This document shows positions 4,638-41,903 of a stretch of 43,058 nucleotides of DNA, piece after piece. The stretch's first letter is position 1. Each line of letters opens with the position of its first letter. The DNA comes from Solirubrobacterales bacterium (GTDB lineage Bacteria; Actinomycetota; Thermoleophilia; Solirubrobacterales; 70-9), in contig DASVWP010000280.1 of the NCBI GenBank assembly GCA_036393155.1, positions 1 to 43,058 of the forward strand. The letters run 5' to 3'. Below the pieces are notes generated by a model, which saw only the letters and a program-made list of their open reading frames with translations, searched no databases and had not been told where the DNA came from. Made by a program: the position numbers and the translations under genes.

Positions 4638-4646
4638 CCCGGAGCC

Positions 4647-10648: not shown

Positions 10649-10655
10649 GCAACGG

Positions 10656-14243: not shown

Positions 14244-14255
14244 GCCCGTCGCGGT

Positions 14256-15106: not shown

Positions 15107-16150
15107 ATGACCGATGCCTCTGCGGAGCGGAATCCCTCTGCGGCGCGTTACGACTTCGAAAAGATCGATCTGGCGTCGGACAGCGTTCATGCCGACGTCG
15201 TTCGCCTGGTCGGGGAGAACAAGCGGGTGCTTGAGCTGGGCCCCGCCACCGGGTACATGTCGCGCGTCTTCCGCGAGCGCGGCTGCAGCGTCGTCGGCAT
15301 CGAGATCGACGCCGAGATGGCCGAGCGCGCGGGCGAGTTCTGCGAGCGGGTGATCGTCGGCGACCTCGATGCGCTGGACCTCGCGGCGGAGTTGGGCGAC
15401 GAACGATTCGACGCGATCGTCGCCGCCGACGTGCTCGAGCACCTGCGGGACCCGCTGGCCGCGCTGACCAGTCTGCGCCCCTTTCTCGCCGCGGATGGAG
15501 CCTTCGTGATCTCGGTCCCCAACGTCGCCCACGGCAGCGTGCGCCTCGCGCTCCTGACAGGGCACTTCGACTACCGCGAGATCGGCCTCCTCGACTCCAC
15601 TCACCTGCGGTTCTTCACCCGTGAGACCTTCGAGGGCCTTCTCGACGAAGCCGAGCTCGGGCTCGCCGAGCTTCATCGGCACGACCTCAACCTCGACGCA
15701 TCCGAGGTCCCGTTCGACGCCGAGGCGATCCCTCTCGCCGTCAGGGAGCGCCTGGAGAGCGACCCGGACGCCCGGACCTACCAGTTCGTCGCCAAGGCGA
15801 TCCCGATGGATCGCGACGGTCTGCGCGAGATCCAGGCCCGGCTCCGGGAGCTGGCCGAGCTGCGGCTGGCCGCCGCTCGTGCGGCGGAGCTGGAGGACAA
15901 GATCGCCAAGATCGGGCAGCGCGAGGGCGAGCTCCGCAAGGCGCTGGTCGAGGCGCACGATCAGCTGCTGCGGCGAGACGCGCAGATCGAGGAGCTGCAC
16001 GGAGACGCGGTCCGGCGCGACGAGGAGATCAGGCGCGTGCACGCCCAGCTGCACGAGACCCAGTCTTACCTCGAGGGGATCCGCAGGAGCCCGTTCGGGT
16101 TCCTCTACAGGGTGCAGCAGGTGCTGCAGCGGATGCTGCGGGGGAGATGA
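15107..16150 (+). CDS. Class I SAM methyltransferase fused to a long C-terminal coiled coil and terminal amphipathic basic helix (WbdD-like chain-terminator architecture)
   Basis: The methyltransferase motifs are VLELGPATGYMS, AADVLEHL and GAFVISVPN. A heptad-rich, charged segment then spans about 15821-16078 (REIQARLRELAELRL...HAQLHETQSYLEG). The protein ends FGFLYRVQQVLQRMLRGR. Its stop overlaps the next ATG (ATGA at 16147-16150). Confidence 0.75.
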   Translation: MTDASAERNPSAARYDFEKIDLASDSVHADVVRLVGENKRVLELGPATGYMSRVFRERGCSVVGIEIDAEMAERAGEFCERVIVGDLDALDLAAELGDERFDAIVAADVLEHLRDPLAALTSLRPFLAADGAFVISVPNVAHGSVRLALLTGHFDYREIGLLDSTHLRFFTRETFEGLLDEAELGLAELHRHDLNLDASEVPFDAEAIPLAVRERLESDPDARTYQFVAKAIPMDRDGLREIQARLRELAELRLAAARAAELEDKIAKIGQREGELRKALVEAHDQLLRRDAQIEELHGDAVRRDEEIRRVHAQLHETQSYLEGIRRSPFGFLYRVQQVLQRMLRGR

Positions 16151-24048: not shown

Positions 24049-25340
24049 TTGTCCTGGCCCTGCTCGATAACCGTTTCGTACTCGCAGTGGGGGGCGATGA
24101 TGCCGCGTCCCTGCGGTGCTCCGTAGATCACGAAGCTGGCTGCGCGAGGGACGTAATGCGAGATCCCAAACGCACTCTGGATGCCGACGTGGATGAAATG
24201 GCGCCCTGGGGCAAGGGGGTTGTCGATCATCGCCGAGACGACGAGGCGGTCGCCCTGGATCGGCTCCCCGTCGTCTGAGCTCACCGGCACCCCGAGTTCG
24301 AACATCGAGACGTCGTCGGCGTTGGCAACCACGATCCCGACGTGCAGGACGGAGACCTTGCGCAGCAGTTCGGCCTCGACCCGTACCTTCAGGCGTTCCC
24401 CCAGCTCGAGGTTGTTGTCGGCGGCGGCCTCTCCGGAGATCGTGCAGGACAGCAGCCGAGCACCATCCCCCTCTCCGGCGCTGGGTTCACCGCCGGCCGT
24501 GGACGTTTCGCCGGCGAAGTTGAGCTTTAGGTACTCGCGTCCCGTTTCCGCTGGGGCGCCGATGTGTTGGATCTTGCCGTCGCTGAGCAGCATCGCGCGG
24601 TGGCAGTACTCCTCGACCGCGCCCATCTCGTGGGTCACCAGGACGATCGTTTTGCCTTCGCCTTTCATTCGGTGAAACGCGTCAGCGCACTTCTGCTGGA
24701 AGGACGCGTCGCCGACTGCCAGGACCTCGTCGATCAGCAGGACGTCGGCTTCGGCCTCCATCATCACCGCGAAGGCCAGCCGCACGAGCATCCCGGAGGA
24801 GTAGTTCTTCAGCTTCAGGTCGGCGAAATCGTGCAGCTCCGCAAAATCGATCACCGCATCGAGGCGGTGTCGCACCTCCCTGGGGGTGAGTCCCATCATC
24901 ACCCCGTTGAGGACGACGTTTTCCCGCGCGGTCAGTTCGTGGTTGAACCCCACTCCGAGCTCGATGAAGGGAGCCAGCCGGCCCGCGATCTGGATGCTGC
25001 CGCTGTCGGCGCGATAGATGCTCGCCAGGAGTTTCAGCAGGGTGCTCTTGCCGGAGCCATTGCGGCCGACGATGCCGAAGAACTCGCCCTGGTGGATTTC
25101 GAAGGAGATCCCGTTGAGGGCGTGCAGCTCGCGGTAGTCGCGGACCGCGAACGGGTGCACGACCCGCTCTTTCAGGGAATCCACGCGATTCGTGGGGATG
25201 CGGAACGACTTGTGCAGGTTCTCGACGCGGATCGCCGGGGCCGTCGTCGGAGTCGACGGCGCGCTGATGCTCGGAGCGGCGATTGCGTTTTCGGCGGACA
25301 TGGGGGGATGGCGCTCTGCGGAGCTCGCTCCTCGGCGCAT
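24045..25340 (-). CDS. wzt: Polysaccharide ABC exporter ATP-binding protein with C-terminal extension (Wzt-type, putative glycan-cap-binding module)
   Basis: Walker A is GRNGSGKST, the signature is YSSGM and Walker B is VLLIDE. An extra beta-rich region of about 150 aa follows the NBD (about 24045-24485). I prefer ATG 25340, which has TAGTGT 7 nt upstream. An alternative ATG is at 25301. The rest of ORF 24045..25973 is shadow sequence. Confidence 0.85.
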   Translation of the reverse strand: MRRGASSAERHPPMSAENAIAAPSISAPSTPTTAPAIRVENLHKSFRIPTNRVDSLKERVVHPFAVRDYRELHALNGISFEIHQGEFFGIVGRNGSGKSTLLKLLASIYRADSGSIQIAGRLAPFIELGVGFNHELTARENVVLNGVMMGLTPREVRHRLDAVIDFAELHDFADLKLKNYSSGMLVRLAFAVMMEAEADVLLIDEVLAVGDASFQQKCADAFHRMKGEGKTIVLVTHEMGAVEEYCHRAMLLSDGKIQHIGAPAETGREYLKLNFAGETSTAGGEPSAGEGDGARLLSCTISGEAAADNNLELGERLKVRVEAELLRKVSVLHVGIVVANADDVSMFELGVPVSSDDGEPIQGDRLVVSAMIDNPLAPGRHFIHVGIQSAFGISHYVPRAASFVIYGAPQGRGIIAPHCEYETVIEQGQDK

Positions 25341-25394: not shown

Positions 25395-27176
25395 ATGGTG
25401 GAGGGTGAACTTCTCGCCCTGCTCGTGATCCACCTTCTGTTGACGGGTCTGCCTGGTGTGGCGGCGGCTCTGCTGGTAGCGAGCAGGGGTGAGCGCCGCG
25501 AGCCGGTGCTCTTGGGTGTTGCCCTGGTGGGCTCCGGCGCCGCGGCAATGCTCGCGTTCTGGGGCTATTACGGGAGCCACGAGCTGGGCGAGACGGCCTC
25601 CTTCTTCGTCGCCTTCGGCTCGCTTCTGCTGAGTGGCTGGTTGCTGCGCACGGGCGGCATCGACAGGGCGCTGTTGCGCCGGCTGGCCGTCCCGTTGGCG
25701 CTGTGGGCGCTGGGATCGGCCTTCCTCGTCTATCTCGGCTTCCTCCACGGCGGCACGCGGGAACCGTTGAGCCTCGCCTCGATCCGGTTCTCGGGGCAGC
25801 TGCCCAGCGACAACCAGATCCCCCGCTTCTTCTCGGAATGGTTCTTCAGCCACGGACACCAGAGCCCACCGCCCGAGTTCCCCGGTGAATGGCTGGCCAG
25901 CGACCGGCCGCCTCTGCAGGTCGGCTACGCCTTGCTCGAGCGCCCCTTTGGCTGGGATTCCAGCGGGCTTCACTACCAGGTCATGGGGGTCGTACTGCAG
26001 CAGCTCTGGATCGTCGGCCTATGGGCTCTGCTGGTTGCGGGTCGCGCCGGCCGGCTTACGCGGGGGCTGGCGATGTTGACCGTCTTGGTCTCCGACCTGG
26101 CGATCGTCAACGGCTTCTTCGTCTGGCCCAAGCTCTTGCCTGCGGCGATGCTCCTGGCCGCGGCGGCGCTGGTGCTGACTCCACTCTGGCCCGACGTGCG
26201 GCGCAGTTCCTGGGGCGCTGCCCTGCTTGCGGCCCTGCTCGGCCTCGCGATGATGGGACACGGTGGGAGCGTGTTCGGGGTGATTCCGTTGGCGGCGATC
26301 GCGCTCGCCCGCGGCGGCCTGCCGAGCTGGCGCTGGCTAGGGGTCCTGATCGCGGTCGGGATCCTCTTCGTCGGTCCCTGGAGCGCCTATCAGCGCTGGG
26401 GCGACCCTCCCGGCGACCGCCTTGCCAAGTGGATGCTCGGCGGCGTCTCCGAAGTCGATGGCCGCAGCAGCTTGCAGGCGATCACCGACTCCTATCGAGA
26501 AATCGGGCTCGGCGGCACCCTCCACTACAAGGCGGAGAATTTCGTCTCGATTGTCGGAGGCGGGCCGATGATCGAAGACCTCGAACACAGCTTCGAAGAA
26601 CTGAAGGCCGGGCGGCTCGGGGGCGCGGCGGCGTTCATTCGGGCGATCCTCTTCTACTACCTGCTGCCGTCGCTCGGGTTGATGCTCGTCGGCCTGGGCG
26701 CGATCGCCGCCAGCTGGCGGCGCCGCGCCCGCGACCCCGCGGAGTGGAGCCTCGCGCTCTGGTGCCTGGCCGCCTTCATGGTCGGAGCCGTCGTATGGGC
26801 GCTCCTGATGTTCGGGCGCAACGGCGCCGGGGCTGTGATCCACCAAGGAAGCCTGGTGATCCCGATCTTCGGCTTCTGCGCCGCCGCGGTGGGTGTCCGC
26901 GCCGTGTACCCACGCTTTGGCACCTGGTTGATGGGGGTAAATGCGGCGCTGATGCTGGCGCTCCATGCCCCGATGCTCACCCCTATGCCCGGGGTGGCGT
27001 ACTCGGCTTGGGCCGGCCTGTTGGCCGCCGGCGCCCTGGTCGGTTTCTGCTTGGTCGCCCTGCGTGCCGGGGAGATCCGCGCGCGGGTTGCGGAGCCGGT
27101 GCCGGTCTCCGGCGGCCAGGGTGCCCCGGGTTCGGCGCTCGCACGCCGGACCTCGCGGTTAGACTCGCGCGCCTGA
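25395..27176 (+). CDS. Uncharacterised polytopic membrane protein, family B paralog 1 (593 aa), GT-C-like
   Basis: It is highly hydrophobic with 12 or more predicted helices by eye. It shares the motifs SDRPPL/SSRGPL, (F/T)WPKLL and MMGHG/LMHPC with 30705..32489. Its stop overlaps the next ATG (TGATG at 27174-27178). Confidence 0.7.
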   Translation: MVEGELLALLVIHLLLTGLPGVAAALLVASRGERREPVLLGVALVGSGAAAMLAFWGYYGSHELGETASFFVAFGSLLLSGWLLRTGGIDRALLRRLAVPLALWALGSAFLVYLGFLHGGTREPLSLASIRFSGQLPSDNQIPRFFSEWFFSHGHQSPPPEFPGEWLASDRPPLQVGYALLERPFGWDSSGLHYQVMGVVLQQLWIVGLWALLVAGRAGRLTRGLAMLTVLVSDLAIVNGFFVWPKLLPAAMLLAAAALVLTPLWPDVRRSSWGAALLAALLGLAMMGHGGSVFGVIPLAAIALARGGLPSWRWLGVLIAVGILFVGPWSAYQRWGDPPGDRLAKWMLGGVSEVDGRSSLQAITDSYREIGLGGTLHYKAENFVSIVGGGPMIEDLEHSFEELKAGRLGGAAAFIRAILFYYLLPSLGLMLVGLGAIAASWRRRARDPAEWSLALWCLAAFMVGAVVWALLMFGRNGAGAVIHQGSLVIPIFGFCAAAVGVRAVYPRFGTWLMGVNAALMLALHAPMLTPMPGVAYSAWAGLLAAGALVGFCLVALRAGEIRARVAEPVPVSGGQGAPGSALARRTSRLDSRA

Positions 27177-28831
27177 TGGCGCTGCGGAGACGCGATGCAC
27201 CGGTTCTGTTGCTCGGTGCGGCCCTGGCAGGGGCCGCCGCGCTGCTGATCGCGCTGACCTGGGAACTCACCTTCTTCCAGGACACCTGGGCTTTCCTGAT
27301 GGAAAGGCAGGGCTCTTCGCTGCACGACTTCCTGGCACCGCACAACGAGCACCTCGTGGTGTTCCAGGTCGCCCTGGAGAAGCTGCTGATCAACACCTTC
27401 GGGATGACCACCGCTCATCCCGAACTGTTTGTGATGATCGCCATGCTGCTGGCCAACGGCGCGCTTCTGTTCGCGTACGTGCGCCGCCGCCTGGGGGACT
27501 GGTCGGCATTGATGATGGCCGCCCTGCTGCTCTTCCTCGGCTCGGCCTGGCAGGTCCAGCTTTGGCCGTTCGAGATCGAGTTCGTGGCCCCGATCATGAC
27601 CGGGCTGGGAGTCCTGCTGTTGCTCGAACGCGAGGATCGCCTGGGGGACGCTTGGGCTTGCCTGCTGATCGTCATCGGCATCGGCTTTGGCAGCCTCGGT
27701 TTGTCCTTCGCATTGGCGGCGGCGGCCGATGTTTGGGTCAGACGGCGCGAGCGGGGTCTTTGGAGCCGGCTCTGGATCGTCGTCGTTCCCTTTGTCCTCT
27801 ACGGCCTCTGGTACGTCGGCTGGGGCCACGAAGCCGAACACCACTTGACTCTGCACAACCTCCTGCGCCTGCCGCCTTACGTCTTGGAAGGTGTCGGCAC
27901 CGCCCTTGCGGCACTCAGCGGTCTGCTCACGCTCAACTTCAGCGGACCGAGCGATCCCTTCTGGGGCCGGCCGCTGATCATCGTCGTGGTCGCTCTGATT
28001 GCCTACGTGAAGTGGCGGCGCCCCGGGTTTGCCTGGACGCTCTGGCCGGTCCTCGTCGCCGCCTTCAGCTACTGGATCCTCGCCGGCCTCAACTACATCC
28101 CGGGCAGGGAAGCTTCCTCGCCGCGCTATGTCTACGCCAGCGCCGCCTTCGTCCTGATGGTGAGCGCGGAGCTCCTGCGCGGGTCGCGGTTGAGTCGGCG
28201 CGGAATTCTGATCGCCGGAGCGCTGACGGCCGTCGCGGTGATGCCGAATCTGGCTCAAATGAAGGAAGGAGCCGATTGGCTGAAGGAACAGACGGTGCTC
28301 ACCCGCGCTGACACCGGCGCAATCGAAATCGCCAGCCGCACGGTCGAACCGTCGTTCAGATTGACGCCGGAACTCGCCGGCACCCCTTCGTTGGTCAACG
28401 TCGACGCCGGTGATTACCTGTCCGCTGTCGAAGCTCACGGCTCCCCTGCCTACTCGCCCGTCCAGCTGGCCGCCACCCGCGAAGTCGGTCGACACTGGGC
28501 GGACGTGGTCCTGGCCCGAGCTCTTCCGGTTTCGCTGGAAACGGAATTCGGCACCTACGCGCACGCGGCCGCCCGGAGCTGCACTGCGATCGCTCCCGGC
28601 TCGGCTCCTCCGGCGGGCGTGGAACTGGCACCCGGCTCAACCAAAATTGAAGTCGCTCCCGGGCCGCCCGTGAGCTTCAGCCTCCGTCGCTTCGCGGTAG
28701 CCGAATTCCCCGTCAAAACCTCCGGCGCCCCAGGCGAATCAACCAGCTACATCGGGATCCCACACGACCGCGCTTCCCAGCCGTGGTTCCTGCATCTCGA
28801 AGCTCAGCAGCCCGTTCGGGTCTGTCGCTGA
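27176..28831 (+). CDS. Uncharacterised polytopic membrane protein, family A paralog 3 (551 aa)
   Basis: ATG 27176 lies within the track's 980-aa ORF 25889..28831. The protein begins MALRRRDAPVLLLG... and carries the full family A motif set. The upstream 429 aa of the track ORF are an out-of-frame shadow of the preceding gene. Confidence 0.8.
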   Translation: MALRRRDAPVLLLGAALAGAAALLIALTWELTFFQDTWAFLMERQGSSLHDFLAPHNEHLVVFQVALEKLLINTFGMTTAHPELFVMIAMLLANGALLFAYVRRRLGDWSALMMAALLLFLGSAWQVQLWPFEIEFVAPIMTGLGVLLLLEREDRLGDAWACLLIVIGIGFGSLGLSFALAAAADVWVRRRERGLWSRLWIVVVPFVLYGLWYVGWGHEAEHHLTLHNLLRLPPYVLEGVGTALAALSGLLTLNFSGPSDPFWGRPLIIVVVALIAYVKWRRPGFAWTLWPVLVAAFSYWILAGLNYIPGREASSPRYVYASAAFVLMVSAELLRGSRLSRRGILIAGALTAVAVMPNLAQMKEGADWLKEQTVLTRADTGAIEIASRTVEPSFRLTPELAGTPSLVNVDAGDYLSAVEAHGSPAYSPVQLAATREVGRHWADVVLARALPVSLETEFGTYAHAAARSCTAIAPGSAPPAGVELAPGSTKIEVAPGPPVSFSLRRFAVAEFPVKTSGAPGESTSYIGIPHDRASQPWFLHLEAQQPVRVCR

Positions 28832-28848: not shown

Positions 28849-29685
28849 TCACGCTTTATCGCTGAACAACCGCGTTGCGCGTCGTCGCCATGCCCGCAGC
28901 CCGTTGGTCGCTGGCAGCGGCGGGTGCTCCATCGGATTCGGCGGCGGCATCTGGCCCTGCTTGCGCAGCACGACCATGAACTCGATTCCCTGACGGGCCC
29001 CCGCCTCGAGGTCGAAGGACTCCCCGAAGCGTTCCCGGCAGTGGAGGATCAGGCGCATGAACTCGGCCTGGGTCCAGACATGCATGTGTATCGAGTAAGC
29101 CTTCGCTTCCAGGTCGCGAGCATGGGCTAGGCATTCCTCGTCGGTCTGGCCCTCCTTCGCCTCGACCAGCCGCGACCACTCGTCGTAGTGCTGGCGGCGT
29201 GAGCGCTCCGGCCCCTCCTCGTAATCGGCGATCACGTGCTCCAGCGGCGTCACCGGGCGGCGGAAGTCGAAGGTGAATCGCTTGTCGGGCACGGCGTAGA
29301 AGAGGGTTCCTCCTCCTCTTAGCCTGGCGAGATGGGTCTCAATCGTGCGGATCGGGTTCTCGCAGTGCTCCAGAAAGTGATTGGCGACGATGAAGTCCTG
29401 CGATCCTTCAGCAGCCGTCGCCAGGCGCTCGCCATCGTCAACGAGGTCCACTGGGGTGAGGTCCCAGTCGGCGAGCTCGGGGTACTCCCGCCTCAGGTCG
29501 TCGATCGGCATCCGATCGACGTATCGCGCTCGGGCGGTCGGGGGCAGGGTCAGCGGCTGGTGGAGCGGCCCGATCTCGAGGCCTTCTCCGAACAGGAAGC
29601 GATCGGCGAGCTCACGGCGGGCGTCGAGGTACAGGGGCGGGGCGGGGGAAGGCCCTGCCTGTGTCTCCCCTGGAGGCTGATTCAT
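28849..29685 (-). CDS. Class I SAM-dependent methyltransferase
   Basis: Motifs are GLEIGP, IVANHFLEH and GGTLFYAVPDKR. ATG 29685 has a TAGCCT box 7 nt upstream. The upstream part of ORF 28849..29868 is low-complexity sequence. Confidence 0.75.
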   Translation of the reverse strand: MNQPPGETQAGPSPAPPLYLDARRELADRFLFGEGLEIGPLHQPLTLPPTARARYVDRMPIDDLRREYPELADWDLTPVDLVDDGERLATAAEGSQDFIVANHFLEHCENPIRTIETHLARLRGGGTLFYAVPDKRFTFDFRRPVTPLEHVIADYEEGPERSRRQHYDEWSRLVEAKEGQTDEECLAHARDLEAKAYSIHMHVWTQAEFMRLILHCRERFGESFDLEAGARQGIEFMVVLRKQGQMPPPNPMEHPPLPATNGLRAWRRRATRLFSDKA

Positions 29686-29746
29686 CCCCGAGAGGCTATC
29701 TGGAGGGACAAGCGCATCAGACCCAAGTGCTGTCAGGCTTGCAGCC
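29686..29746. promoter_or_regulatory. Divergent intergenic region between the methyltransferase and GT2 genes
   Basis: TAGCCT on the minus strand (plus coordinates 29693-29698) lies 7 nt from ATG 29685. I found no clear element for the plus-strand GTG at 29747. Confidence 0.35.
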
Positions 29747-30712
29747 GTGGCGGCATCCGCACCTCTCGCGGTGGTGATCCCGAGCTGGAATTCAGTCGAG
29801 CTTCTGCCGCGTTGCCTCGACTCGCTCGCGGGCCAGGGGGTGGAGCTGGAGGTGCTGGTGGTCGACAACGGTTCCAGCGACGGCTCGGTCCCCTACCTCG
29901 AGCGCCGCGGGACCCCTTGTCTCTCGCTGCCCCGGAACGTCGGGTTCGCCGCCGCGGTCAATCTCGGGGCCTCCCGGGTCACGGCGCCTCTCGTGCTCTC
30001 GTTGAACGCCGATACGGCCCTCGAGCCGGGCGTGGTCGAGTCCCTGCTTTCCGTGCTGGCGGACGACCCCTCGCTGGGCGGCGTGCAGCCCCGCATCCTG
30101 CAGCTCGAGGCAACGAGGCCCCCGAACCTGGCCACGGCTCGCCTCTATAGCGTTGGCCAGGCGCTGACCGGCGACGGGCGCGCGGTGGAGATGGGCGCCG
30201 GGATGCAGCAGCGCCCCGAGCTACTGCAGAGGCGTGAGATCTTCGGCGTCTGCGGCGCCGCCTGTCTGCTGCGGCGCGAGTTGTTCGATGACCTCGGTGG
30301 CTACGACGAGCGGTACTTCGCCTTCTATGAGGACGTCGACCTGAACGTGCGGGCGCGGATTGCCGGCTGGCGCTTCGAGTTCGTCCCCGAGGCGGTCGTG
30401 TGGCACCGCGGAAACGCTTCCTGGCAGGCCGGCGTAGACCGTGCCGGAGCCTGGAATGCGAGGCTCGTCGCCCGCAACCGTCTCGCCACCCAGATCAAGT
30501 TCATGCCGGTGGCAGCCGCGCCGCGGATTGCCGCCGTCGAGGTGGGGGCGTTGGCTCGGGCCGCGGCGCAGCGTCGCTTCCTGGCCACGCTGCGGGGAAA
30601 GCTGGCGGCCCTGCGGTGGTTGCCCGAGCTGCTCAAAGAGCGCGGCAGGCTGCGGCGCGACGGAGACGTCGAGCTGGCCCGGCGCTGGCTTGGCGCGGAC
30701 CGGCTCAGCTAG
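29747..30712 (+). CDS. GT2 glycosyltransferase (WbbL-like, possible rhamnosyltransferase)
   Basis: Motifs are VVIPSWN, VVDNGSSDGS, NVGFAAAVN, LNADT and FYEDVDLNVR. The start is GTG. Confidence 0.8.
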   Translation: MAASAPLAVVIPSWNSVELLPRCLDSLAGQGVELEVLVVDNGSSDGSVPYLERRGTPCLSLPRNVGFAAAVNLGASRVTAPLVLSLNADTALEPGVVESLLSVLADDPSLGGVQPRILQLEATRPPNLATARLYSVGQALTGDGRAVEMGAGMQQRPELLQRREIFGVCGAACLLRRELFDDLGGYDERYFAFYEDVDLNVRARIAGWRFEFVPEAVVWHRGNASWQAGVDRAGAWNARLVARNRLATQIKFMPVAAAPRIAAVEVGALARAAAQRRFLATLRGKLAALRWLPELLKERGRLRRDGDVELARRWLGADRLS

Positions 30713-32489
30713 CCTCGGAGCGGCGCTGGGTCCGCCAGGACAGCATCACCATCGCCGCCGCGCAGCTGACCGTCAGCAAAATTGCGGCAGCGTCGTTGAA
30801 GCTGCGGTTGCCGCTCAAGAGTTGGAATCCGTTGGTTCCGAGGGTCGGCAGAAGGAGGGCGATCAGCGCCCCGAGCGGTCGCAGGGAGAGAATCGTCCGA
30901 ATCGGCTTCGAGCGCAGCCAGGGAAACCCCGCAGACGCCTGTTGCAGAGAGACACAGGCGAGCAGAGCCAGTCCCCACCACTGCAGACCCTCGCGCAGCA
31001 TCCCGGTCGCCGCCGAGCCCCAGTAAACGCAGAACACGAGCAGTGGCGCGACAAGGACGGCGAAGAATGGCCAGGGCCGTCGCCGCGCGGTCCGTCCGAG
31101 GCTGAGCACCAGGAACGGGAAGAAAACAATTCCGAGGCCGAATGGGACTCCGGACCAGTACTGGTCGGACCAATGGATCACCGCCGGCGATTGGCCGCCG
31201 AGAGTGTTGATCGAGAAATCACTCCCGTGGAAGACGGGGAGCATCAGCGGCACCAGGGTGTTGCCGAGGGAGGTCAGGCGGTGTTCGAGCCAGCCAAGGA
31301 CCGAGGGGTGGACGTTGGATCCCGCCTCGTGAAGGTATTCGATGAATTCGCCTTGGTCGTAGTGATGCAGGCAGATCAGCCTCCAGCCAACCAGGAACAC
31401 CCCGACCCCCACTGCCACCGCGATCGCGGCCTTCAGGTTCGGGCGCCGCCAGTTGGCGCCACGCGCCGGCCATAAGGCAAGCAATCCGATCCCGGTGAGG
31501 CCGAAGAGAGCGCATGGGTGCATCAGGTAGCCGACTCCGACCAGCAGACCGGCGCGCAAGTTGCGCCGCTCGGCGATGGCCAGCAGGGCAAGGATCACGA
31601 AGGCGCCGGCCAGCAGCTTCGGCCAGGTGAAGATGAGGTCGTCCGCGACAAAGGGAGACGCGGCGGCGAGCATGATGACCAACCGGGCCGCCCGGTCACC
31701 GCCGATCCTGCGAACGGCGCCCCAGACCGCCAGCAGCGCGGTGAGGCTGAGGGTCATCATCGCCAGCCGGAACGCCATGAAGCCCTCGGGATCGAAGGTC
31801 TGCCACGGCTCTTCGGGAGCGGTGATTGGTGGCTTGCCTCCGGTCAGCAGGACGATCGGAGTCGTGGCCAGCCCGGCGAGCGGTCCACGACTGGAAAAGC
31901 TCCAGGGCGCATAGAGCGAGGCGCTGGCAGCGCTGAACGGGCCCTGCCCGTGCGCGATCAGCTCGGGGACCAGGTAGGGGATCCGACTGTCGGGTCGCGG
32001 CTCGGCGTAGAGGGTGCGGGAGATCGCGCCGGCGTAGAGGGAGCCAACGGGATCGAGCGACCAGATCGTCCGCCCGATCACCATGCCGAGAGTAAGGCCC
32101 GAGAAGAGTAGGGCTCGCTGCTCCTCACGGTCGAAGACATCGGCCGGATCGGCGCTCACCAGGGCTCCGAGGAGCAGACCGAGGAGGGGCGCCAGCGCTG
32201 CGAAGCAGATGACGCGGGGATCGATGCTCGGGGACAGGGCCCACGCGACGACCGCGGTTGCGATCAACACCGCGAGACCGACCAGCGGCAGATAGGCGAG
32301 GTCGAGGCGTCTCCCCAGTAGTCGCCAGAGCACTCCCGGCCCCAGGAGGACGACGATGGCCAGCGCCGTGGTGCAGGCCACTCGGAGGAGGTCCAGCGCC
32401 TCGCGGTCGAGGGTCGGCCGCAGCCGTTCTGGCGGATCCGCTGCGCCGAGGATGCAGCCGGCCACGGCTAGCCCCAGCAGCACGAGCAT
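30705..32489 (-). CDS. Uncharacterised polytopic membrane protein, family B paralog 2 (about 594 aa), GT-C-like
   Basis: It is highly hydrophobic and shares motifs with 25395..27176. I prefer ATG 32489 (MLVLLGLAVAG...); the track start at 32516 is a TTG. The 3' end overlaps the convergent GT2 gene by 8 nt. Confidence 0.7.
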   Translation of the reverse strand: MLVLLGLAVAGCILGAADPPERLRPTLDREALDLLRVACTTALAIVVLLGPGVLWRLLGRRLDLAYLPLVGLAVLIATAVVAWALSPSIDPRVICFAALAPLLGLLLGALVSADPADVFDREEQRALLFSGLTLGMVIGRTIWSLDPVGSLYAGAISRTLYAEPRPDSRIPYLVPELIAHGQGPFSAASASLYAPWSFSSRGPLAGLATTPIVLLTGGKPPITAPEEPWQTFDPEGFMAFRLAMMTLSLTALLAVWGAVRRIGGDRAARLVIMLAAASPFVADDLIFTWPKLLAGAFVILALLAIAERRNLRAGLLVGVGYLMHPCALFGLTGIGLLALWPARGANWRRPNLKAAIAVAVGVGVFLVGWRLICLHHYDQGEFIEYLHEAGSNVHPSVLGWLEHRLTSLGNTLVPLMLPVFHGSDFSINTLGGQSPAVIHWSDQYWSGVPFGLGIVFFPFLVLSLGRTARRRPWPFFAVLVAPLLVFCVYWGSAATGMLREGLQWWGLALLACVSLQQASAGFPWLRSKPIRTILSLRPLGALIALLLPTLGTNGFQLLSGNRSFNDAAAILLTVSCAAAMVMLSWRTQRRSEAS

Positions 32490-32555: not shown

Positions 32556-33482
32556 CTAGTCGCGCCGCCGCCGCCGCCGCTCCAGCGCCTCCCGGGCGGT
32601 GATCTGCAGCAGCGACGCGCCGTCGACGTCGCGTGGCTCCAGCCCGCGCCCGTCGCGCCATCCGCGCAGACGGCCCGCCAGCCCCTGTCCCGTGCGGTCG
32701 CGCAGCAGCTGTCCGGCGCAGATCGCGCCCTCGCAGGCGAGCGCGCGCAGGGCCAGCCCGGGGTGCGACATCACGCCGTAGCGGCGCAGCATGTAGCCGC
32801 GGCTCCAGCCGGTGAAGGAGTACTTGCGGGCGCTGGCGGCGCCGAGGCTGGCCGAGTAGGCGTGCAGCGCGCGAGCGTCGCCGGCGAGCCGGCAGCGCGC
32901 TCCCGCCGCCGCCATCCGCAGGGCCAGGTCGAGGTCCTCGTAGTAGAGGAAGATCCGCTCGTCGAAGCCGCCGACGGCCTCGAAGGCCTCGCGGCGGTAG
33001 AGCGCCGCGCCGCCGGTCGGGCCCAGCGGTGCGGGCGCGGACAGCGCCGCCTCGGCCGCCTCGCCGTGCAGGTAGTCGAAGCCCATCAGGGTGCGGTCGG
33101 CGACCACCCCAGCCGAGTCGATAAGCCCCGGCTCGCGCTCCTGCAGCAGCACTCCGGCGACCGTCTCGGCGCCCTCGGCCGCCGCCAGCAGCGCCGCCGC
33201 GAAGCCCGGCTCGGCGCGGGCGTCGTTGTTGAGCAGGATCAGCAGCTCGGCCGGGTGCCGGCGGACGGCCTGGTTGATCGCCGCGCCGAAACCCAGGTTG
33301 CGCCCCAGCTCCAGGACCGTCACCTCCGGGAACTCGCGCCGCGCCAGCGCCACCGAGTCGTCGCTGGAGCCGTTGTCCACGAGGACGACCTCGACCGGCT
33401 CGCTCTGCTCGCGCAGGCTGGCGAGGGTCTCGCCAAGCCGCGCGGCGCCGTTGAAGTTGGGGATGTAAACGGCCGCTCGCAC
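32556..33482 (-). CDS. GT2 glycosyltransferase (WbbL-like)
   Basis: This is the C-terminal 308 aa of ORF 32556..34442. Motifs are VYIPNFNG, LVDNGSSDDS, NLGFGAAIN, LNNDA and YYEDLDLALR. GTG 33482 is preceded by GAAGGAG. The upstream part of the ORF is a shadow of rmlA. Confidence 0.8.
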   Translation of the reverse strand: MRAAVYIPNFNGAARLGETLASLREQSEPVEVVLVDNGSSDDSVALARREFPEVTVLELGRNLGFGAAINQAVRRHPAELLILLNNDARAEPGFAAALLAAAEGAETVAGVLLQEREPGLIDSAGVVADRTLMGFDYLHGEAAEAALSAPAPLGPTGGAALYRREAFEAVGGFDERIFLYYEDLDLALRMAAAGARCRLAGDARALHAYSASLGAASARKYSFTGWSRGYMLRRYGVMSHPGLALRALACEGAICAGQLLRDRTGQGLAGRLRGWRDGRGLEPRDVDGASLLQITAREALERRRRRRD

Positions 33483-33518: not shown

Positions 33519-34595
33519 ATGGAGCCCTTGAAGGGACTGATTCTCTCCGGCGGCGCAGGCACGCGGCTTCGTCCGATCACCCACACCTCGGCGAAGCAGC
33601 TCGTTCCCGTGGCCAACAAACCCGTTCTCTTCTACGGGATCGAGGCGCTGGTCGACGCCGGGGTCGAGGAGATCGGGATCATCATCGCGCCTGAGACCGG
33701 TGAGGAGATCCGCGCCGCCGCCGGCGACGGCTCGCGCTTCGGCGCCCGCATCACCTACATCGTCCAAGACCGCCCGGCCGGGCTCGCCCACGCGGTGCTG
33801 ACCGCGGAGGAGTTCATCGGCGGCTCGCCGTTCGTCATGTACCTGGGCGACAACCTGCTGCGCGACGGCCTGCGCGGCCTCGTCTCGACCTTCCGGGCCG
33901 AGGAGCCCGACGCGCTGATTCTCCTCACCCCCGTCGAGGAGCCCCAGCACTACGGGGTCGCCGAGCTCGACGGCGAGCGGATCGTGCGGCTGATCGAGAA
34001 GCCCAAAGACCCGCCCTCCAACCTCGCCCTGGTCGGCGTCTACCTCTTCCAGCCGGCGATCTTCGACGCCGCCCGGGCGCTCGAGCCCTCCTGGCGCGGC
34101 GAGCTGGAGATCACCGAGGCGATCCAGAGCCTGATCGACGACGGCCACCGCGTGCAGTCGGAGATCGTGCGCGGCTGGTGGAAGGACACCGGCCAGCTCG
34201 CCGACATGCTCGACGCCAACCGGCTGGTCCTCGAGGAGATCGAGACCGAGCTGGCGGGCGACGTCGACGAGGGCTCGCGGGTCGAGGGCCGGGTCGTGCT
34301 CGAGGCGGGCGCCTCGCTGGTGCGCTCGGTCATCCGCGGCCCGGCGGTGATCGGCGCCGGCGCCTGCATCGAAGACGCCTACGTCGGTCCCTACACCTCG
34401 ATCGGCGAGAACGTCCAGGTGCGCCGCTCGGAGGTCGAGCACTCGATCGTCCTCGCCGGCTCGGTGGTCGAGGACCTCGGCACGCGGATGGAGGCCAGCC
34501 TCCTGGGCCGCGAAGTGAAGCTGACCCGCAGCAGCGGCATGCCGAAGACGCTGCGCCTGCTGGTCGGCGACAAGTGCGAGATCGAAATCGTCTAG
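33519..34595 (+). CDS. rmlA: Glucose-1-phosphate thymidylyltransferase, long form with C-terminal left-handed beta-helix
   Basis: Motifs are GLILSGGAGTRLRPIT, YLGDN, YGVAE and a hexapeptide-repeat tail. ATG 33519 lies in ORF 32763..34595. A TAGGGT box lies 11 nt upstream. Confidence 0.9.
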   Translation: MEPLKGLILSGGAGTRLRPITHTSAKQLVPVANKPVLFYGIEALVDAGVEEIGIIIAPETGEEIRAAAGDGSRFGARITYIVQDRPAGLAHAVLTAEEFIGGSPFVMYLGDNLLRDGLRGLVSTFRAEEPDALILLTPVEEPQHYGVAELDGERIVRLIEKPKDPPSNLALVGVYLFQPAIFDAARALEPSWRGELEITEAIQSLIDDGHRVQSEIVRGWWKDTGQLADMLDANRLVLEEIETELAGDVDEGSRVEGRVVLEAGASLVRSVIRGPAVIGAGACIEDAYVGPYTSIGENVQVRRSEVEHSIVLAGSVVEDLGTRMEASLLGREVKLTRSSGMPKTLRLLVGDKCEIEIV

Positions 34596-34608
34596 TGGGG
34601 GTCATGGC

Positions 34609-35460
34609 ATGAAGCTGCTGATCGCCGGAGCGGGCGGGATGCTGGGGCGCGACGTCGTCCTCGCGGCCGGCAACGCCGGCCACGACGTGGTCGGCTTCGG
34701 CCACGCCGAGCTCGACGTCACCGACCCGGCGGCGCTGGAGCGCAAGTTCGACCTCGAGCGCCCCGACGTGGTGATCAACTGCGCCGCCTGGACCGACGTC
34801 GACGGTGCCGAGGAGTCCGAGGAGGCGGCCTTCGCGATCAACGGCACCGGTGCCGGGAACGTCGCCGCCGCCGCGGCGGAGGCCGGCGCCAGCGTCGTCT
34901 TCATCTCCACCGACTACGTCTTCGACGGCGGCAAGGGCTCCCCGTACGTCGAGTCCGACCAGCCGGCGCCGCTCTCCGCCTACGGCCGCACCAAGCTGGC
35001 CGGTGAGGAGGCGACCGCGGCGGCCAACAAGCGCCACTTCGTCGTCCGCTCCTCCTGGCTGTTCGGGATCGGCGGCGGCAACTTCGTGGAGACGATGCTG
35101 CGGCTCGCCGACAGCCAGAACGAGGTCCTGGTGGTTCGCGACCAGGTCGGCTCGCCGACCTACACCTGGCACCTCGCCTACGGGGTGGTGCGGCTGATCG
35201 AGGGGATGGAGTACGGGATCCACCACATGGCGGCCGGCGGCCACTGCTCCTGGTACGACTTCGCCCGCGAGATCTTCGAGCAGGCCCAGGTCGAGTGCAA
35301 AGTCCTCTCGGGGACGACCGAGATGCTCGGCCGCCCGGCCCCGCGGCCGGCCTTCTCGGCCCTGGAGAGCCAGCGCGAGCACGCGATCCTCCTGCCTCCC
35401 TGGCAGGACGGCCTGGCGGGGTACCTGGCCCAACGACAAGCGGAGAGGGAGGGAGGATGA
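34609..35460 (+). CDS. rmlD: dTDP-4-dehydrorhamnose reductase
   Basis: Motifs are MKLLIAGAGGMLG, NCAAWTDVD, STDYVFDG and YGRTKLAGE. Confidence 0.9.
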   Translation: MKLLIAGAGGMLGRDVVLAAGNAGHDVVGFGHAELDVTDPAALERKFDLERPDVVINCAAWTDVDGAEESEEAAFAINGTGAGNVAAAAAEAGASVVFISTDYVFDGGKGSPYVESDQPAPLSAYGRTKLAGEEATAAANKRHFVVRSSWLFGIGGGNFVETMLRLADSQNEVLVVRDQVGSPTYTWHLAYGVVRLIEGMEYGIHHMAAGGHCSWYDFAREIFEQAQVECKVLSGTTEMLGRPAPRPAFSALESQREHAILLPPWQDGLAGYLAQRQAEREGG

Positions 35461-36440
35461 AGATCCTCGTCACCGGCGCCGCCGGTTTCATCGGTTCCAC
35501 CTACGTGCGCCTGGTCGGCTCCGAGCACGACGTCGTCGTGCTCGACAAGCTCACCTACGCCGGCCGGCGCGAGAACCTGCCCGAGGGCACGCCGCTGGTG
35601 GTCGGCGCGATCGAGGACCCGGCGGCGGTGCGCGAAGCGATGCAGGGCGTCGACGCGGTGGTCAACTTCGCCGCCGAGTCCCACGTCGACCGCTCGATCG
35701 AGGACCAGAACGCCTTCGCCCGCACCCACGTGATCGGCACCGGGACGCTGCTGGACGCCGCCCGCGAGCTCGGCGTCGAGCGCTACCTGCAGGTCTCCAC
35801 CGACGAGGTCTACGGCTCGATCGAGTCCGGCTCGTTCACCGAGACCTCGCCCCTGGACCCCTCCTCGCCCTACTCGGCGACCAAGGCCGCCGGCGACCTG
35901 CTGGTCGCCGCGCACGTCCACACCTACGGCATCGACGCCTCGATCGTCCGCGGCTCCAACAACTACGGCCCGCGCCAGTACCCCGAGAAGCTGATCCCGC
36001 TGATGGTGCTGAACGCCCTGCACGGCGACCCGCTGCCGGTCTACGGCGACGGCCGCCAGGTCCGCAACTGGCTCTTCGTCGAGGACTTCTGCCGCGGCAT
36101 CCACACCGTGCTGGCGAAGGGGAAGGCCGGCGAGGCCTACAACGTCGGCGGCCCCGAGGAGTGCGAGAACATCGAGGTCGTCAAGCGGGTTATCGAGCTG
36201 ACCGGGGGGGACGAGTCGCTGATCGAGTACGTCACCGACCGGCCCGGCCACGACCGCCGCTACTCGCTCTCCTCGGCGAAGCTGAAGGAGGAACTCGGCT
36301 GGGAGGCCGAGGTCCACTTCGACGAGGGCCTGGAGAAGACCGTGCGGTGGTACCGCGACAACGAGGAGTGGTGGGGGCCGATCCGCTCCGGCGAGTACCG
36401 CGAGTACTACGAGAAGCAGTACGGGAAGGCGCTGCGCTAG
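35457..36440 (+). CDS. rmlB: dTDP-glucose 4,6-dehydratase
   Basis: ATG 35457 overlaps the rmlD stop (ATGA). Motifs are ILVTGAAGFIGS, STDEVYG, YSATKAAGD and HDRRYS. Confidence 0.9.
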   Translation: MKILVTGAAGFIGSTYVRLVGSEHDVVVLDKLTYAGRRENLPEGTPLVVGAIEDPAAVREAMQGVDAVVNFAAESHVDRSIEDQNAFARTHVIGTGTLLDAARELGVERYLQVSTDEVYGSIESGSFTETSPLDPSSPYSATKAAGDLLVAAHVHTYGIDASIVRGSNNYGPRQYPEKLIPLMVLNALHGDPLPVYGDGRQVRNWLFVEDFCRGIHTVLAKGKAGEAYNVGGPEECENIEVVKRVIELTGGDESLIEYVTDRPGHDRRYSLSSAKLKEELGWEAEVHFDEGLEKTVRWYRDNEEWWGPIRSGEYREYYEKQYGKALR

Positions 36441-36994
36441 TGCCGGAGCGCCTGCCGACCCGGATCGAGGGGCTCGTCCTGCTGGAGCCTGTCGTCCACG
36501 GCGACGAGCGCGGCTTCATGGTCGAGACGTTCAGCCGCGAGCAGTGGGCGGAGCTGGGGGTGGACCTCCCGTTCGTCCAGCACAACCACTCGCGCTCGCG
36601 CCGCGGCACCCTGCGCGGGATCCACTTCCAGACCGAGCCGGGGCAGGCGAAGCTCGTCCGCTGCGCCCGCGGCGAGGTCCTCGACGTCGCCGTCGACCTG
36701 CGCCGCGGCTCGCCGACCTTCGGCCAGTGGGAAGCCCAGGTCCTCGACGACGTCCGCCACCGCCAGTTCTTCGTTCCCGTCGGCTTCGGCCACGGCTTCG
36801 TCGTCCTCAGCGAGACCGCCGACTTCTGCTACCAGGTGTCGAGCCTCTACGACCCCGAGACCGAGTCGGGGATCGCCTGGGACGACCCCGACGTCGGGGT
36901 CGACTGGCGGGTTGCCGAGCCGCTGCTCTCCGAGCGCGACAAGCAGGCCCCGCGCCTCGCCGAGGTCGCCGACTCGCTGCCCTTCGCCGTCTAG
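36440..36994 (+). CDS. rmlC: dTDP-4-dehydrorhamnose 3,5-epimerase
   Basis: GTG 36440 overlaps the rmlB TAG by 1 nt. The cupin motifs are DERGFM, RGIHFQ, GFGHGF and the conserved Tyr in FCYQVSSLY. Confidence 0.9.
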   Translation: MPERLPTRIEGLVLLEPVVHGDERGFMVETFSREQWAELGVDLPFVQHNHSRSRRGTLRGIHFQTEPGQAKLVRCARGEVLDVAVDLRRGSPTFGQWEAQVLDDVRHRQFFVPVGFGHGFVVLSETADFCYQVSSLYDPETESGIAWDDPDVGVDWRVAEPLLSERDKQAPRLAEVADSLPFAV

Positions 36995-37881: not shown

Positions 37882-39381
37882 CTAGTAGGCGCCGTTGCCG
37901 CGGAAGATCGCCTGCGGCGTGCGGATCAGGATCGAGAGGTCGGTGAGCAGCGAGAGGTTGTCGAGGTAGTCGCGCTCCATCGCCAGCCGCTCCTCGAAGG
38001 TCAGGTCGCTGCGCCCGTAGACCTGCATCGGCCCGGTCACTCCCGGCTTCACCGCCAGCCGCGTGCGCTGGCGCTCGTCGTACAGGGCGACCACGCTCTC
38101 CTCCTCGGGCCGCGGGCCGACCAGCGACATCTGGCCGCGCAGGACGTTGATCAGCTGCGGCAGCTCGTCGAGGCTGGTCCGGCGCAGCCAGCGGCCGGTC
38201 CGGGTGACCCGCGGGTCGTCGGGGATCTTGAAGGCGGGCTGCTCGAGCGCCGCCAGGTCGACCAGGTCGGCAAGCCGCTCCTCGGCGTCGGCGACCATGG
38301 TGCGGAACTTCAGCATCGTGAATGGCTCGCCTTCCTGGCCGGCGCGGCGCTGGCGGAAGAGGACCGGCCGGCCGGTGTCGAGGAGGATCGCCAGGGCGAT
38401 CGCCGCCAGCAGCGGCGAGAGCACGACCAGCACGAAGGCGGCGACCACCACGTCCATCCCGCGCTTCAGCGCCTGCGTCGAGCGCGGCGGGTCGCTGAAG
38501 CGGAAGTCGAGGACCGGCAGCTCGGCCAGCCGGTTGAGCTCGATCCCCGGCCCGAGCAGCCCGTAGTGCTGGGGCAGGAAGGTCAGAGCCAGGCCCTCCG
38601 CCTTGCACTGCTCGATCAGCCGCTCGGCGGCCATCTCGCTCATCTCCTGTTCGGTGACCACGACGCGCTCGATCTCGTATTCGCGGGCGACCTGCGAGAT
38701 GTCGGCGATCGAGCCCAGGCGCGGCAGCTCCTTGCCCCCGTCGGCCTTGTCGGAGAGATAGCCGACCAGTCCGAGCCGCGTCTCGGGGTGCGTGGAGACC
38801 CGGCGGGCGACGACGTCGGCCGCCGCTCCCGGGCCGACCACCACGCCGAGGGCGACGGGGGTCAGCCGGTGCCACAGGAACCGCACCGTCCCCCGCAGCA
38901 CGACGCTGCCGAAAAGGGTCCCGACCCCCAGCGCGATCGCGCTCGCCGGCGACAGCGGGCCGACCGGGCTGAGCGCCAGCAGACCGTCCAGGGCCAGGGT
39001 GCCGAGGACGGCGGCGGAGACCAGCGAGGCGAGCTCGTCGAGCGTGCTGTGGCGGATCCGCCGGTGGTCCTTGTCGTAGAGGCCGTTCAGCTTCACGACG
39101 AGGATCCAGACCGGGCTGAAGAGGACCGCCCAGAAGAGCGTCGCGATGTCGGTGCTGGAGGTCGCCGCGGTGATGGCGCAAAGCGACACGCACAGGGCGG
39201 TCCAGTCGCCGAACGCGAGAAGCCGGCGCAGCAGGGCGCCGCGCCGCCGCGACTCGCTGGCCCCGGGCGCGGGCGTCATCGGAGCCCGTGAGCCGCGATC
39301 GGCGGCCGGCCGCCCGGCCGCCGGAGCGCTCACCCGCTCCTCGGTCGCCTTGCTCCGTGCGGTGTCGGAGATCCGGCTCAT
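37882..39381 (-). CDS. Polyprenyl-phosphate glycosyl-1-phosphate transferase (WbaP/WsaP/CpsE-type bacterial sugar transferase), pathway initiator
   Basis: This is the C-terminal 499 aa of track ORF 37882..41316. It has N-terminal helices, a central Rossmann-like segment and a C-terminal catalytic domain (KRGMDVV, FKFRTM-like MLKFRTM, DELPQLINVLRGQMSLVGPRPE). ATG 39381 overlaps the upstream stop (ATGA). Confidence 0.85.
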   Translation of the reverse strand: MSRISDTARSKATEERVSAPAAGRPAADRGSRAPMTPAPGASESRRRGALLRRLLAFGDWTALCVSLCAITAATSSTDIATLFWAVLFSPVWILVVKLNGLYDKDHRRIRHSTLDELASLVSAAVLGTLALDGLLALSPVGPLSPASAIALGVGTLFGSVVLRGTVRFLWHRLTPVALGVVVGPGAAADVVARRVSTHPETRLGLVGYLSDKADGGKELPRLGSIADISQVAREYEIERVVVTEQEMSEMAAERLIEQCKAEGLALTFLPQHYGLLGPGIELNRLAELPVLDFRFSDPPRSTQALKRGMDVVVAAFVLVVLSPLLAAIALAILLDTGRPVLFRQRRAGQEGEPFTMLKFRTMVADAEERLADLVDLAALEQPAFKIPDDPRVTRTGRWLRRTSLDELPQLINVLRGQMSLVGPRPEEESVVALYDERQRTRLAVKPGVTGPMQVYGRSDLTFEERLAMERDYLDNLSLLTDLSILIRTPQAIFRGNGAY

Positions 39382-41872: not shown

Positions 41873-41903
41873 GCCCGTGCTGAAATCGAGGAGGTACACC
41901 AAG

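Follow-up and report, generated by a model that had tools for sequence, protein, structure and literature searches.

GT-C glycosyltransferases make or decorate N-glycans, mycobacterial arabinan and mannan, and streptococcal rhamnose polysaccharides, are responsible for lipid A modifications, and in several cases serve as drug targets. The systems considered below are those closest to five large membrane proteins encoded in a stretch of 43,058 nucleotides from a Solirubrobacterales bacterium (contig DASVWP010000280.1; the entire stretch is hereafter termed the window), namely B1 and B2, together comprising family B, and A1, A2 and A3, corresponding to family A paralogs 1, 2 and 3. The GT87 mannosyltransferases of mycobacteria, such as PimE and the related Mpt, use polyprenyl-phosphate mannose as donor. 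In PimE, D58 at the tip of JM1 acts as the base, while K195 and H322 hold the phosphate (PMC12041525). In what are called three-component systems, for example GtrA/GtrB/GtrV, streptococcal GacI/J/K/L and the GT136 system of Citrobacter, a polyprenyl-phosphate sugar delivered by a GT2 enzyme or by a phosphoribose synthase is the donor of the GT-C enzyme. In the GT136 protein ORF12, an Asp follows the first of ~11 transmembrane (TM) helices and the C-terminus is a beta-rich carbohydrate-binding domain (PMC11127046); rhamnose cell wall polysaccharides are the subject of two reviews (PMC9574508; PMC8035078). Finally, in assembling mycobacterial arabinogalactan, Wzm/Wzt-type export of galactan precedes the actions of the GT-Cs AftA-D and EmbA/B, each relying on decaprenyl-phosphate arabinose. 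EmbA and EmbB act as a heterodimer.

The locus examined here encodes an exporter, a candidate synthase of a lipid-linked sugar and membrane proteins of GT-C-like appearance. In the following, it is argued that B1 and B2 are most likely deeply diverged members of a single unannotated GT-C branch, as judged by the predicted model in the case of B1 and by sequence in the case of B2, and that B1 is tied to family A by gene order and by natural gene fusion.

Kinship, predicted fold and candidate active site of B1 and B2

More than 1,300 homologues of B1 were detected, with every one being annotated as 'hypothetical'. This reflects the lack of a sequence anchor, since searches against Pfam, NCBIfam and PDB sequences, with profiles as well, return no match for B1. 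Exhaustive searching with a hidden Markov model (HMM) assigned at least 1,742 clusters at 50% identity to the B1 family, which spans the Solirubrobacterales and includes single members from Pseudonocardiales and Terriglobales metagenome-assembled genomes (MAGs).

The AlphaFold2 (AF2) model of B1 is all-helical and confident, with a predicted local distance difference test (pLDDT) score of 85.8 and a predicted template modelling (pTM) score of 0.90. When this model was compared with the PDB using Foldseek, ALG12, ALG9 and Pmt4 were matched with a probability of 1.0 and AftB with a probability of 0.98, at template modelling scores (TM-scores) of 0.32-0.49. Indeed, all of the high-probability matches were GT-C enzymes. 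A weak match to AftA (probability 0.41; TM-score 0.21) was also returned, with probabilities of less than 0.3 for the non-GT-C matches. B2, for its part, matched Pfam family GT87 (PF09594) with a score of 28.7 bits (E 1.3e-6; gathering cut-off 25), although the match covers only positions 13-163 of the 237 in the model, and precomputed PF09594 matches exist for only a few homologues of B2; B1 shows no GT87 match. In this manner, the GT-C-like character that an earlier sequence-only reading of the window had ascribed to both proteins is upheld.

The same reading had taken B1 and B2 to be distant relatives, a view for which the evidence became stronger as the profiles used were made more diverse. 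BLASTP gave a marginal alignment (E 2e-4; 26% identity over 221 aa), and hhalign, when used with profiles of close homologues, yielded a probability of only 28.7%, which is too weak. By contrast, a diverse B1 profile, comprising 71 full-length sequences that are 28-49% identical to B1, aligned with the B2 family at 98.2% probability (E 5.2e-14; 219 columns), pairing B1 residues 137-384 with B2 residues 165-409. Moreover, several representatives of the B1 family match the B2 HMM directly, as does P0403 at 2.7e-16. B1 and B2 represent two separate deep families that are homologous over ~220 core columns and 18-26% identical, rather than recent paralogs. Of the two start codons available to B2, the TTG at 32516 is probably the true one rather than the ATG at 32489, as the family consensus maintains 'ER..ML' across the ATG, with 'ER' lying upstream of it.

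Three motifs had been proposed to recur in the same order in the two proteins. In the profile alignment, motif 1 (S169-D-R-P-P-L in B1; S199-S-R-G-P-L in B2) and motif 3 (MMGH289GGSVFGV in B1; YLMH324PCALFGL in B2) are indeed in register, whereas motif 2 is so only in part, namely, across (F)(V/T)WPKLL. The remainder of motif 2, 'D(D)L.I', is shifted by 4-5 residues between B1 and B2, is not conserved in the B1 family and, judging from the alignments, is coincidental. A fourth motif, P-x-D-x-x-I-P, had been missed (B1 residues 137-143; B2 residues 165-171). It contains the sole Asp that is invariant in both families, corresponding to D139 in B1 and D167 in B2. In the 71-sequence alignment of the B1 family, the invariant residues comprise D139, D170/R171, W244-P-K246, H289, W329, P338-P339 and Y367, while those of the B2 family alignment comprise R165, D167, R201, W289-P-K291 and H324.

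In both B1 and B2, four hydrophobic segments precede the Asp-bearing loop. In the B1 model, this loop extends from residue 116 to residue 194 and includes short helices at 124-130 and 138-153. According to the positive-inside rule, the Arg-rich short loops of B1 (residues 31-35, 87-96, 216-224, 266-272 and 305-313) mark the cytoplasmic side of the membrane, thereby placing the N-terminus on the outside, together with all of the invariant residues, which are found in loops or at helix ends. In the mechanism proposed here, D139 of B1 and D167 of B2, each located in an outward-facing loop with juxtamembrane helices, would serve as the catalytic base, while the WPK lysine (K246 in B1; K291 in B2) and the conserved histidine (H289 in B1; H324 in B2), at the outer face of the membrane, would hold the phosphate of a polyprenyl-monophosphate sugar.

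An additional N-terminal domain, signal-anchored, Cys-rich and 150-500 aa long, is present in ~40 of the top 150 B1-family representatives (P0417, P0400, P0447 and P0410, among others). These domains are mutually homologous, and a Pfam search of the extra domains in long B1-family proteins returned nothing. They could be acceptor-binding modules. That they are signal-anchored fits with the N-terminus of B1 being outside.

Linkage of B1 to family A

A1, A2 and A3 are mutually 47-51% identical. A3 consists of a GT-C-like membrane domain, in which the sequences F-F-Q35-D36-T-W (with Q35-D36 being invariant) and P-H-N-E-H lie in the loop following TM1, and a C-terminal beta-rich domain (residues 453-550) with invariant C469 and C550. 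When the AF2 model of A3 (pLDDT 89; pTM 0.87) was submitted to Foldseek, STT3, AglB, PglB, ArnT and EmbA/B were matched at probabilities of 0.99-1.0 and TM-scores of 0.29-0.45. As family A is also GT-C-like by model, the locus would encode five proteins of the GT-C type, and the description of the locus as containing five large membrane proteins from two families holds. At the sequence-profile level, no relation between the B1 and B2 families and family A was seen, while a PDB profile search using a further alignment, labelled A3, returned noise only.

Two observations concern the other paralogs. An open reading frame (ORF) at 21144-21776 (-) shows high G+C content at third codon positions (GC3), has no Pfam or NCBIfam match and is represented by homologues in 16 loci. 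It covers ~260 nt of the 5' end of A2 on the opposite strand, such that either its start or that of A2 has probably been miscalled. The protein encoded at 4623-5771 (+), like that encoded at 41775-43028 (+), presents weak Glyco_hydro_42 or Glyco_hydro_cc-like matches. Its gene overlaps the start of A1 by 23 nt, suggesting that coupling to the preceding gene extends to A1, although that gene is not the one found ahead of A3.

The B1 stop codon and the A3 start codon have one base in common (TGATG; 27174-27178). This overlap, noted in the sequence-only reading, is not an assembly artefact, since soil-metagenome contigs from four independent runs cross the junction without indels. To describe how widely B1 and family A are linked, 80 species-representative genomes, all Thermoleophilia-type MAGs, were considered, with neighbours being counted when found within 10 kb of B1. 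A family A gene lay within this distance in 58 species. In 28 of the 80, it was directly downstream of B1 (i.e., within 200 nt), with the one-base overlap being seen in 11 of these and gaps of 12-99 nt in others, while in 27 further species 1.7-5 kb separated B1 from a downstream family A gene of the same orientation, the interval being occupied by B2 or other genes. Efforts at typing neighbouring family A genes as orthologues of A1, A2 or A3 failed, given how close the bit scores were. The expected co-occurrence of families A and B is thus seen in most of these genomes, and the junction counts point to an operon link that is frequent and to translational coupling that is not universal. Stoichiometric co-expression of B1 and A3, which had been read from the overlap, may follow from it.

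A stretch of ~13 nt preceding the start codon of family A (ACTCGCGCGCYTG-ATG; window positions 27161-27178) is conserved as DNA in L003, L006, L008, L031, L058, L078 and other loci, including those junctions at which a TAG or TAA codon terminates B1 12-13 nt ahead of this start. No Shine-Dalgarno-like sequence precedes the family A start. Such conservation in the absence of a Shine-Dalgarno sequence fits with coupling by termination-reinitiation or with an unrecognised initiation signal.

The two families are also joined in single polypeptides. P0413, P0498 and P0506 (1,031-1,214 aa) each contain an A-like module followed by a full B1-family module, with the former carrying the family A motifs FWDQW ... 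HNEHR, while in P0362 the order is reversed, with B1 preceding the A-like module. The family A HMM missed the A-like parts of the fusion proteins, yet these were found by hhalign, which aligned the A-like module with family A at 97.5% probability (E 7.6e-12; 369 columns). Such fusions comprise a Rosetta-stone signal, and as such are stronger evidence for linkage than is operon order.

A third unannotated membrane family, with members of ~470 aa, the motif VWAEDGPIY and no Pfam match, was encountered in ~45 loci, being a component of the B1 locus in most species. Examples are found at 9572-13162 of L071, 11329-13152 of L064 and 13823-15226 (-) of L001; none is found in the window. In a divergent Solirubrobacterales clade without family A near B1, a member of this third family either follows B1 or is fused to it (P0363; L071). 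Together with the fusions to A-like modules, this indicates that B1 is nearly always accompanied by a large membrane partner.

Locus context and donor supply

Those features of the window considered here are listed in Table 1.

Table 1. Positions and attributes of selected window features (strand given where assigned).
Feature	Position	Strand	Remarks
B1	25395-27176	+	593 aa polytopic membrane protein; GC3 0.86
B2	30705-32489 (to 32516 if TTG start)	-	594 aa from ATG, 603 aa from TTG; GC3 frame analysis
A1	5749-7404	+	551 aa; 47% identical to A3; HMM score 741
A2	21517-23169	+	550 aa; 51% identical to A3; HMM score 830
A3	27176-28831	+	551 aa; GC3 frame analysis
Wzm (ABC-2 permease)	23176-24048	-	Pfam ABC2_membrane; divergent from B1
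Wzt (ATPase, C-terminal Wzt_C carbohydrate-binding domain)	24045-25340	-	Pfam ABC_tran, Wzt_C; divergent from B1
Two SDR epimerase/dehydratase genes	9530-11729	+	Pfam Epimerase, GDP_Man_Dehyd; upstream of DPMS-like GT2
DPMS/GtrB/ArnC-like GT2	11726-12499	+	257 aa; candidate polyprenyl-phosphate hexose synthase
Double-GT2 protein	19491-21143	-	550 aa; two Glycos_transf_2 domains
GT2 flanking B2	29747-30712		
Soluble GT2	32556-33482	-	308 aa; Pfam Glycos_transf_2; directly upstream of B2
dTDP-rhamnose genes RmlA long form, RmlD, RmlB, RmlC	33531-36994	+	
Bac_transf initiating polyprenyl-phosphate sugar-1-phosphate transferase	37882-39291	-	Pfam E 1.6e-64
Wzy_C/TPR protein	39378-41489		Separate from B1/B2

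The most constant neighbour of B1 is the double-GT2 protein, present in 68 of the 80 species, followed by Wzm (64), Wzt (63), family A (58, as above), a DPMS-like GT2 (42-44) and B2 (14-15). In the window, the best PDB match of the DPMS-like GT2 is dolichol-P-mannose synthase (5mlz; E 2.2e-19), followed by ArnC and GtrB, while its NCBIfam matches (AglJ, dolichyl-P hexose transferase, PgfS and ArnC) all fall under the equivalog cut-offs. Its GTG start codon overlaps the stop codon of the upstream SDR gene, and the SDR-SDR-DPMS-like GT2 trio recurs in L001. This GT2 gene was initially missed by the GC3 ORF screen.

Relatives of B1 are found next to other putative sources of donor. A DPMS-like GT2 lies directly ahead of a Terriglobales-like B1 relative, while the gene of fusion protein P0498 directly follows genes encoding UbiA-family, DprE1-like and DprE2-like proteins on two independent contigs (L086 and L087). 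The C-terminal half of the UbiA-family protein resembles decaprenyl-phosphate phosphoribosyltransferase, and the DprE1-like oxidase (E 2e-108) and DprE2-like reductase (E 7e-59) both score under the NCBIfam equivalog cut-offs. Even so, the trio can be recognised as the polyprenyl-phosphate pentofuranose pathway. In L086 (positions 2221-12081), the gene order is UbiA-family, DprE1-like, DprE2-like, A-like::B1 fusion, epimerase, amine-oxidase-like, GtrA-type (a GtrA_DPMS_TM gene) and LPG_synthase_TM, and the locus has the appearance of a full cassette for glycosylation by polyprenyl-phosphate pentofuranose outside Mycobacteriales. That either a DPMS-like GT2 or UbiA/DprE-like proteins are encoded next to relatives of B1 suggests that different lineages pair the B1 family with different lipid-monophosphate sugar synthases, as GT-C enzymes would.

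Other candidates for donor supply fared less well. The two GT2s flanking B2 were considered as lipid-phosphate sugar synthases, with an ambiguous outcome, as they present weak similarity to ArnC and no TM helices. The one directly upstream of B2 has a Shine-Dalgarno-like GAAGGAG before its GTG start, and the GT2-B2 order is repeated in L002. The possibility that the nucleotidyltransferase encoded near B2 is a GDP-mannose pyrophosphorylase feeding a Ppm1-like GT2 was refuted, the protein being the long form of RmlA (TIGR01208; 490 bits, cut-off 320). The assignment of the dTDP-rhamnose genes further rests on matches to RmlD_sub_bind, GDP_Man_Dehyd/Epimerase and dTDP_sugar_isom.

The window also contains several GT2 and GT4 genes, as well as five or six methyltransferases (12509-16150 and 28849-29868) which, together with a Wzt bearing a Wzt_C domain, suggest a methyl-capped chain terminus that is recognised by the exporter. 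The methyltransferase/GT2/GT4 block at 13164-19510 is kept in 0-4 of the 80 species, and hence is probably the strain-specific part of the locus.

The window has a G+C content of ~70%, and nearly all named homologues of the proteins it encodes belong to Solirubrobacterales MAGs (Thermoleophilia, Actinomycetota). Near-identical DNA is found in soil metagenomes of at least two studies and, in part, of a third. Only two single-nucleotide polymorphisms over 1 kb (T>C at 26942 and G>A at 27090) distinguish the window from contigs of other soil samples, suggesting that the same population is present in several soils.

Proposed function, alternatives and comparison with known systems

Considering the above, it is fairly probable, although far from certain, that B1 and B2 are extracytoplasmic, polyprenyl-phosphate-sugar-dependent GT-C glycosyltransferases that act with family A on a rhamnose glycan exported by Wzm/Wzt. 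In such a pathway, the initiating phosphoglycosyltransferase, together with GT2 and GT4 enzymes, would build a rhamnose-containing glycan on a polyprenyl carrier in the cytoplasm. The glycan would then be capped by methylation and exported by Wzm/Wzt, after which the five GT-C-type enzymes would glycosylate or extend it at the outer face of the membrane, drawing on lipid-phosphate sugars made by the DPMS-like GT2. B1 would cooperate with a family A enzyme, the two catalysing successive steps or forming a complex, which would explain why their genes are co-operonic, frequently translationally coupled and, in other lineages, fused. The homology of B1 and B2, the GT-C-like predicted fold, the outward orientation of the invariant residues, the gene linkage and the fusions are directly supported here, and it is from these that we infer catalysis, the donor, the acceptor and a physical complex of B1 with family A.

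Several points weigh against this proposal. PDB profile searches using the close-homologue alignments of B1 and B2 and the diverse B1 alignment returned nothing at E<=10, solved GT-C structures included, while the Foldseek matches of B1 have weak E-values (2e-3 to 8e-2) and modest TM-scores, as given above. The Asp-bearing loop follows TM4, whereas it follows TM1 in canonical GT-C enzymes. As to donor supply, the DPMS-like GT2 gene is situated 13 kb from B1, the GT2s flanking B2 have generic best PDB matches and look like ordinary soluble GT2s, and no flippase of the GtrA, MATE or Wzx type was recognised among the window ORFs scanned by Pfam, a search that was not exhaustive for small ORFs. 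In roughly two species out of three, B1 has no family A gene as its direct neighbour, and in 21 of the 80 none was detected up to 10 kb away. Finally, the sequence occurs in DNA runs only and in no RNA runs.

The overlap between B1 and A3 might reflect incidental gene packing, with independent enzymes acting at different steps or on different acceptors, with neither a complex nor fixed stoichiometry. The rarity of the one-base overlap (11 of the 80 species), the gaps and intervening genes found elsewhere, and those 21 species speak for such independence, yet A-like and B1-like modules have been fused independently, and in either order, and in the divergent clade it is the third large membrane family that succeeds B1 or is fused to it. 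Independent action is accordingly judged possible but doubtful. At the other extreme, B1 and a family A protein could be obligate partners in one two-module GT-C enzyme, present as a heteromer here and as one fused chain in other phyla, that polymerises or branches the whole extracytoplasmic domain of a glycan on a Wzm/Wzt-exported primer. This bolder version is tentative and, at present, unlikely. If true, it would describe an arabinogalactan-like wall pathway, in which a primer is exported and the wall built outside, in non-mycolate Actinomycetota and beyond, and one that is run by a GT-C family missing from current annotation libraries.

Other activities can be envisaged for B1 and B2 themselves. 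They could be PMT-type protein O-glycosyltransferases that mannosylate secreted or membrane proteins in place of the glycan and are found in the locus by virtue of a common lipid-linked donor. Pmt4 does provide the top TM-scores of the B1 model (0.42/0.49), and PMT_2 is matched by two of the 71 B1-family representatives at up to 5.8e-7. Still, B2 scores 25.0 bits against PMT_2 (PF13231), i.e., under the cut-off of 26.1, B1 shows no match, and neither protein contains a MIR domain at Pfam E<=1. As Wzm/Wzt and glycan GT2 genes, moreover, accompany B1 in 63-68 of the 80 species, and a fusion relative adjoins a decaprenyl-phosphate arabinose (DPA)-type pentofuranose pathway rather than a mannose donor, protein glycosylation seems improbable. 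Large polytopic proteins in a glycan locus, with sequences that are silent as to the donor, might equally be polymerases or ligases of the Wzy, WaaL or SEDS-like type, acting on polyprenyl-diphosphate-linked oligosaccharides. This is harder still to reconcile with the data, given that neither B1 nor B2 has a Wzy_C or similar Pfam match, that the 50 Foldseek matches listed include no structure of a WaaL, Wzy or SEDS protein, that a separate Wzy_C/TPR protein is encoded in the window, where an ABC-transporter pathway needs no Wzy, and that genes for monophosphate-sugar synthases are linked to family members. Least probable of all is a role for the two proteins as transporters or flippases, for instance of the lipid-linked donor, with no glycosyltransferase activity. 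Although a dedicated flippase was not recognised in the window and MFS, LeuT and other transporters appear in the Foldseek list, their probabilities (0.06-0.28) and TM-scores (0.08-0.15) are far below those of the GT-C enzymes (0.98-1.0 and 0.32-0.49), and no transporter family in Pfam matches B1 or B2; the possibility of a confident transporter assignment, considered at the outset, thus did not materialise. Furthermore, Asp, Lys and His, all of them invariant, are positioned at the outer face, a pattern more typical of a catalytic site than of a pore. Each of these readings, including that of independent action, is less well supported than the proposal that B1 and B2 are extracytoplasmic GT-C enzymes acting with family A.

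This proposal does not invoke a new principle of glycan assembly, as the logic of the pathway is already known from multi-component transmembrane glycosylation and from the assembly of mycobacterial arabinogalactan and lipomannan. What is new is the B1 family, large, widespread and without a Pfam or NCBIfam model; the presence of five GT-C genes from two families in one locus; and the repeated occurrence of two distinct GT-C modules in coupled or fused form. Recognition of B1 as a GT-C-like protein with a candidate active site (D139, K246 and H289) offers a handle on the cell envelope of Thermoleophilia, an abundant and largely uncultured soil lineage, while the recurrent pairing or fusion of B1 with a second GT-C suggests a two-module way of working.

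When compared with the GT87 mannosyltransferases, the B proteins are likewise polytopic GT-C-like proteins of Actinomycetota, with B2 scoring just above the GT87 threshold. As in PimE, an Asp in an outward juxtamembrane loop is accompanied by Lys and His that, in PimE, serve the donor phosphate (PMC12041525), and the B1/B2 arrangement may parallel that of the mycobacterial enzyme. Unlike the GT87 enzymes, B1 has no match to this family and B2 matches only part of the model, four TM helices precede the putative catalytic loop, and the genes are part of a Wzm/Wzt rhamnose-glycan locus rather than of the pathway for phosphatidylinositol mannosides, lipomannan and lipoarabinomannan. ALG9 and ALG12, which are dolichyl-phosphate mannose mannosyltransferases, and Pmt4, the best structural matches of B1, also use lipid-monophosphate mannose donors, yet are eukaryotic, are only 12-14% identical to B1 and have dolichyl-diphosphate oligosaccharide or protein as acceptors.

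The resemblance to the three-component systems lies in the modification outside the cell of an ABC- or Wzy-exported glycan by a GT-C enzyme, with a candidate polyprenyl-phosphate sugar synthase, the DPMS-like GT2, being encoded alongside. Family A, moreover, recalls the layout of GT136 ORF12, as known from its published description, in that D36 follows TM1 and a beta domain spans residues 453-550. The locus differs from the three-component systems in bringing together five GT-C genes from two families unrelated in sequence, and in having no recognised flippase. To our knowledge, coupling or fusion of a B1-type protein to a second GT-C module has not been described for such systems. With respect to mycobacterial arabinogalactan assembly, the window contains a DPMS-like GT2 rather than UbiA or DprE genes. 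In both cases, however, an ABC-exported primer would be met by several GT-Cs acting outside, with family A matching EmbA/B and B1 matching AftB in structural comparisons, and with a fusion relative of B1 being encoded next to UbiA, DprE1-like and DprE2-like genes.

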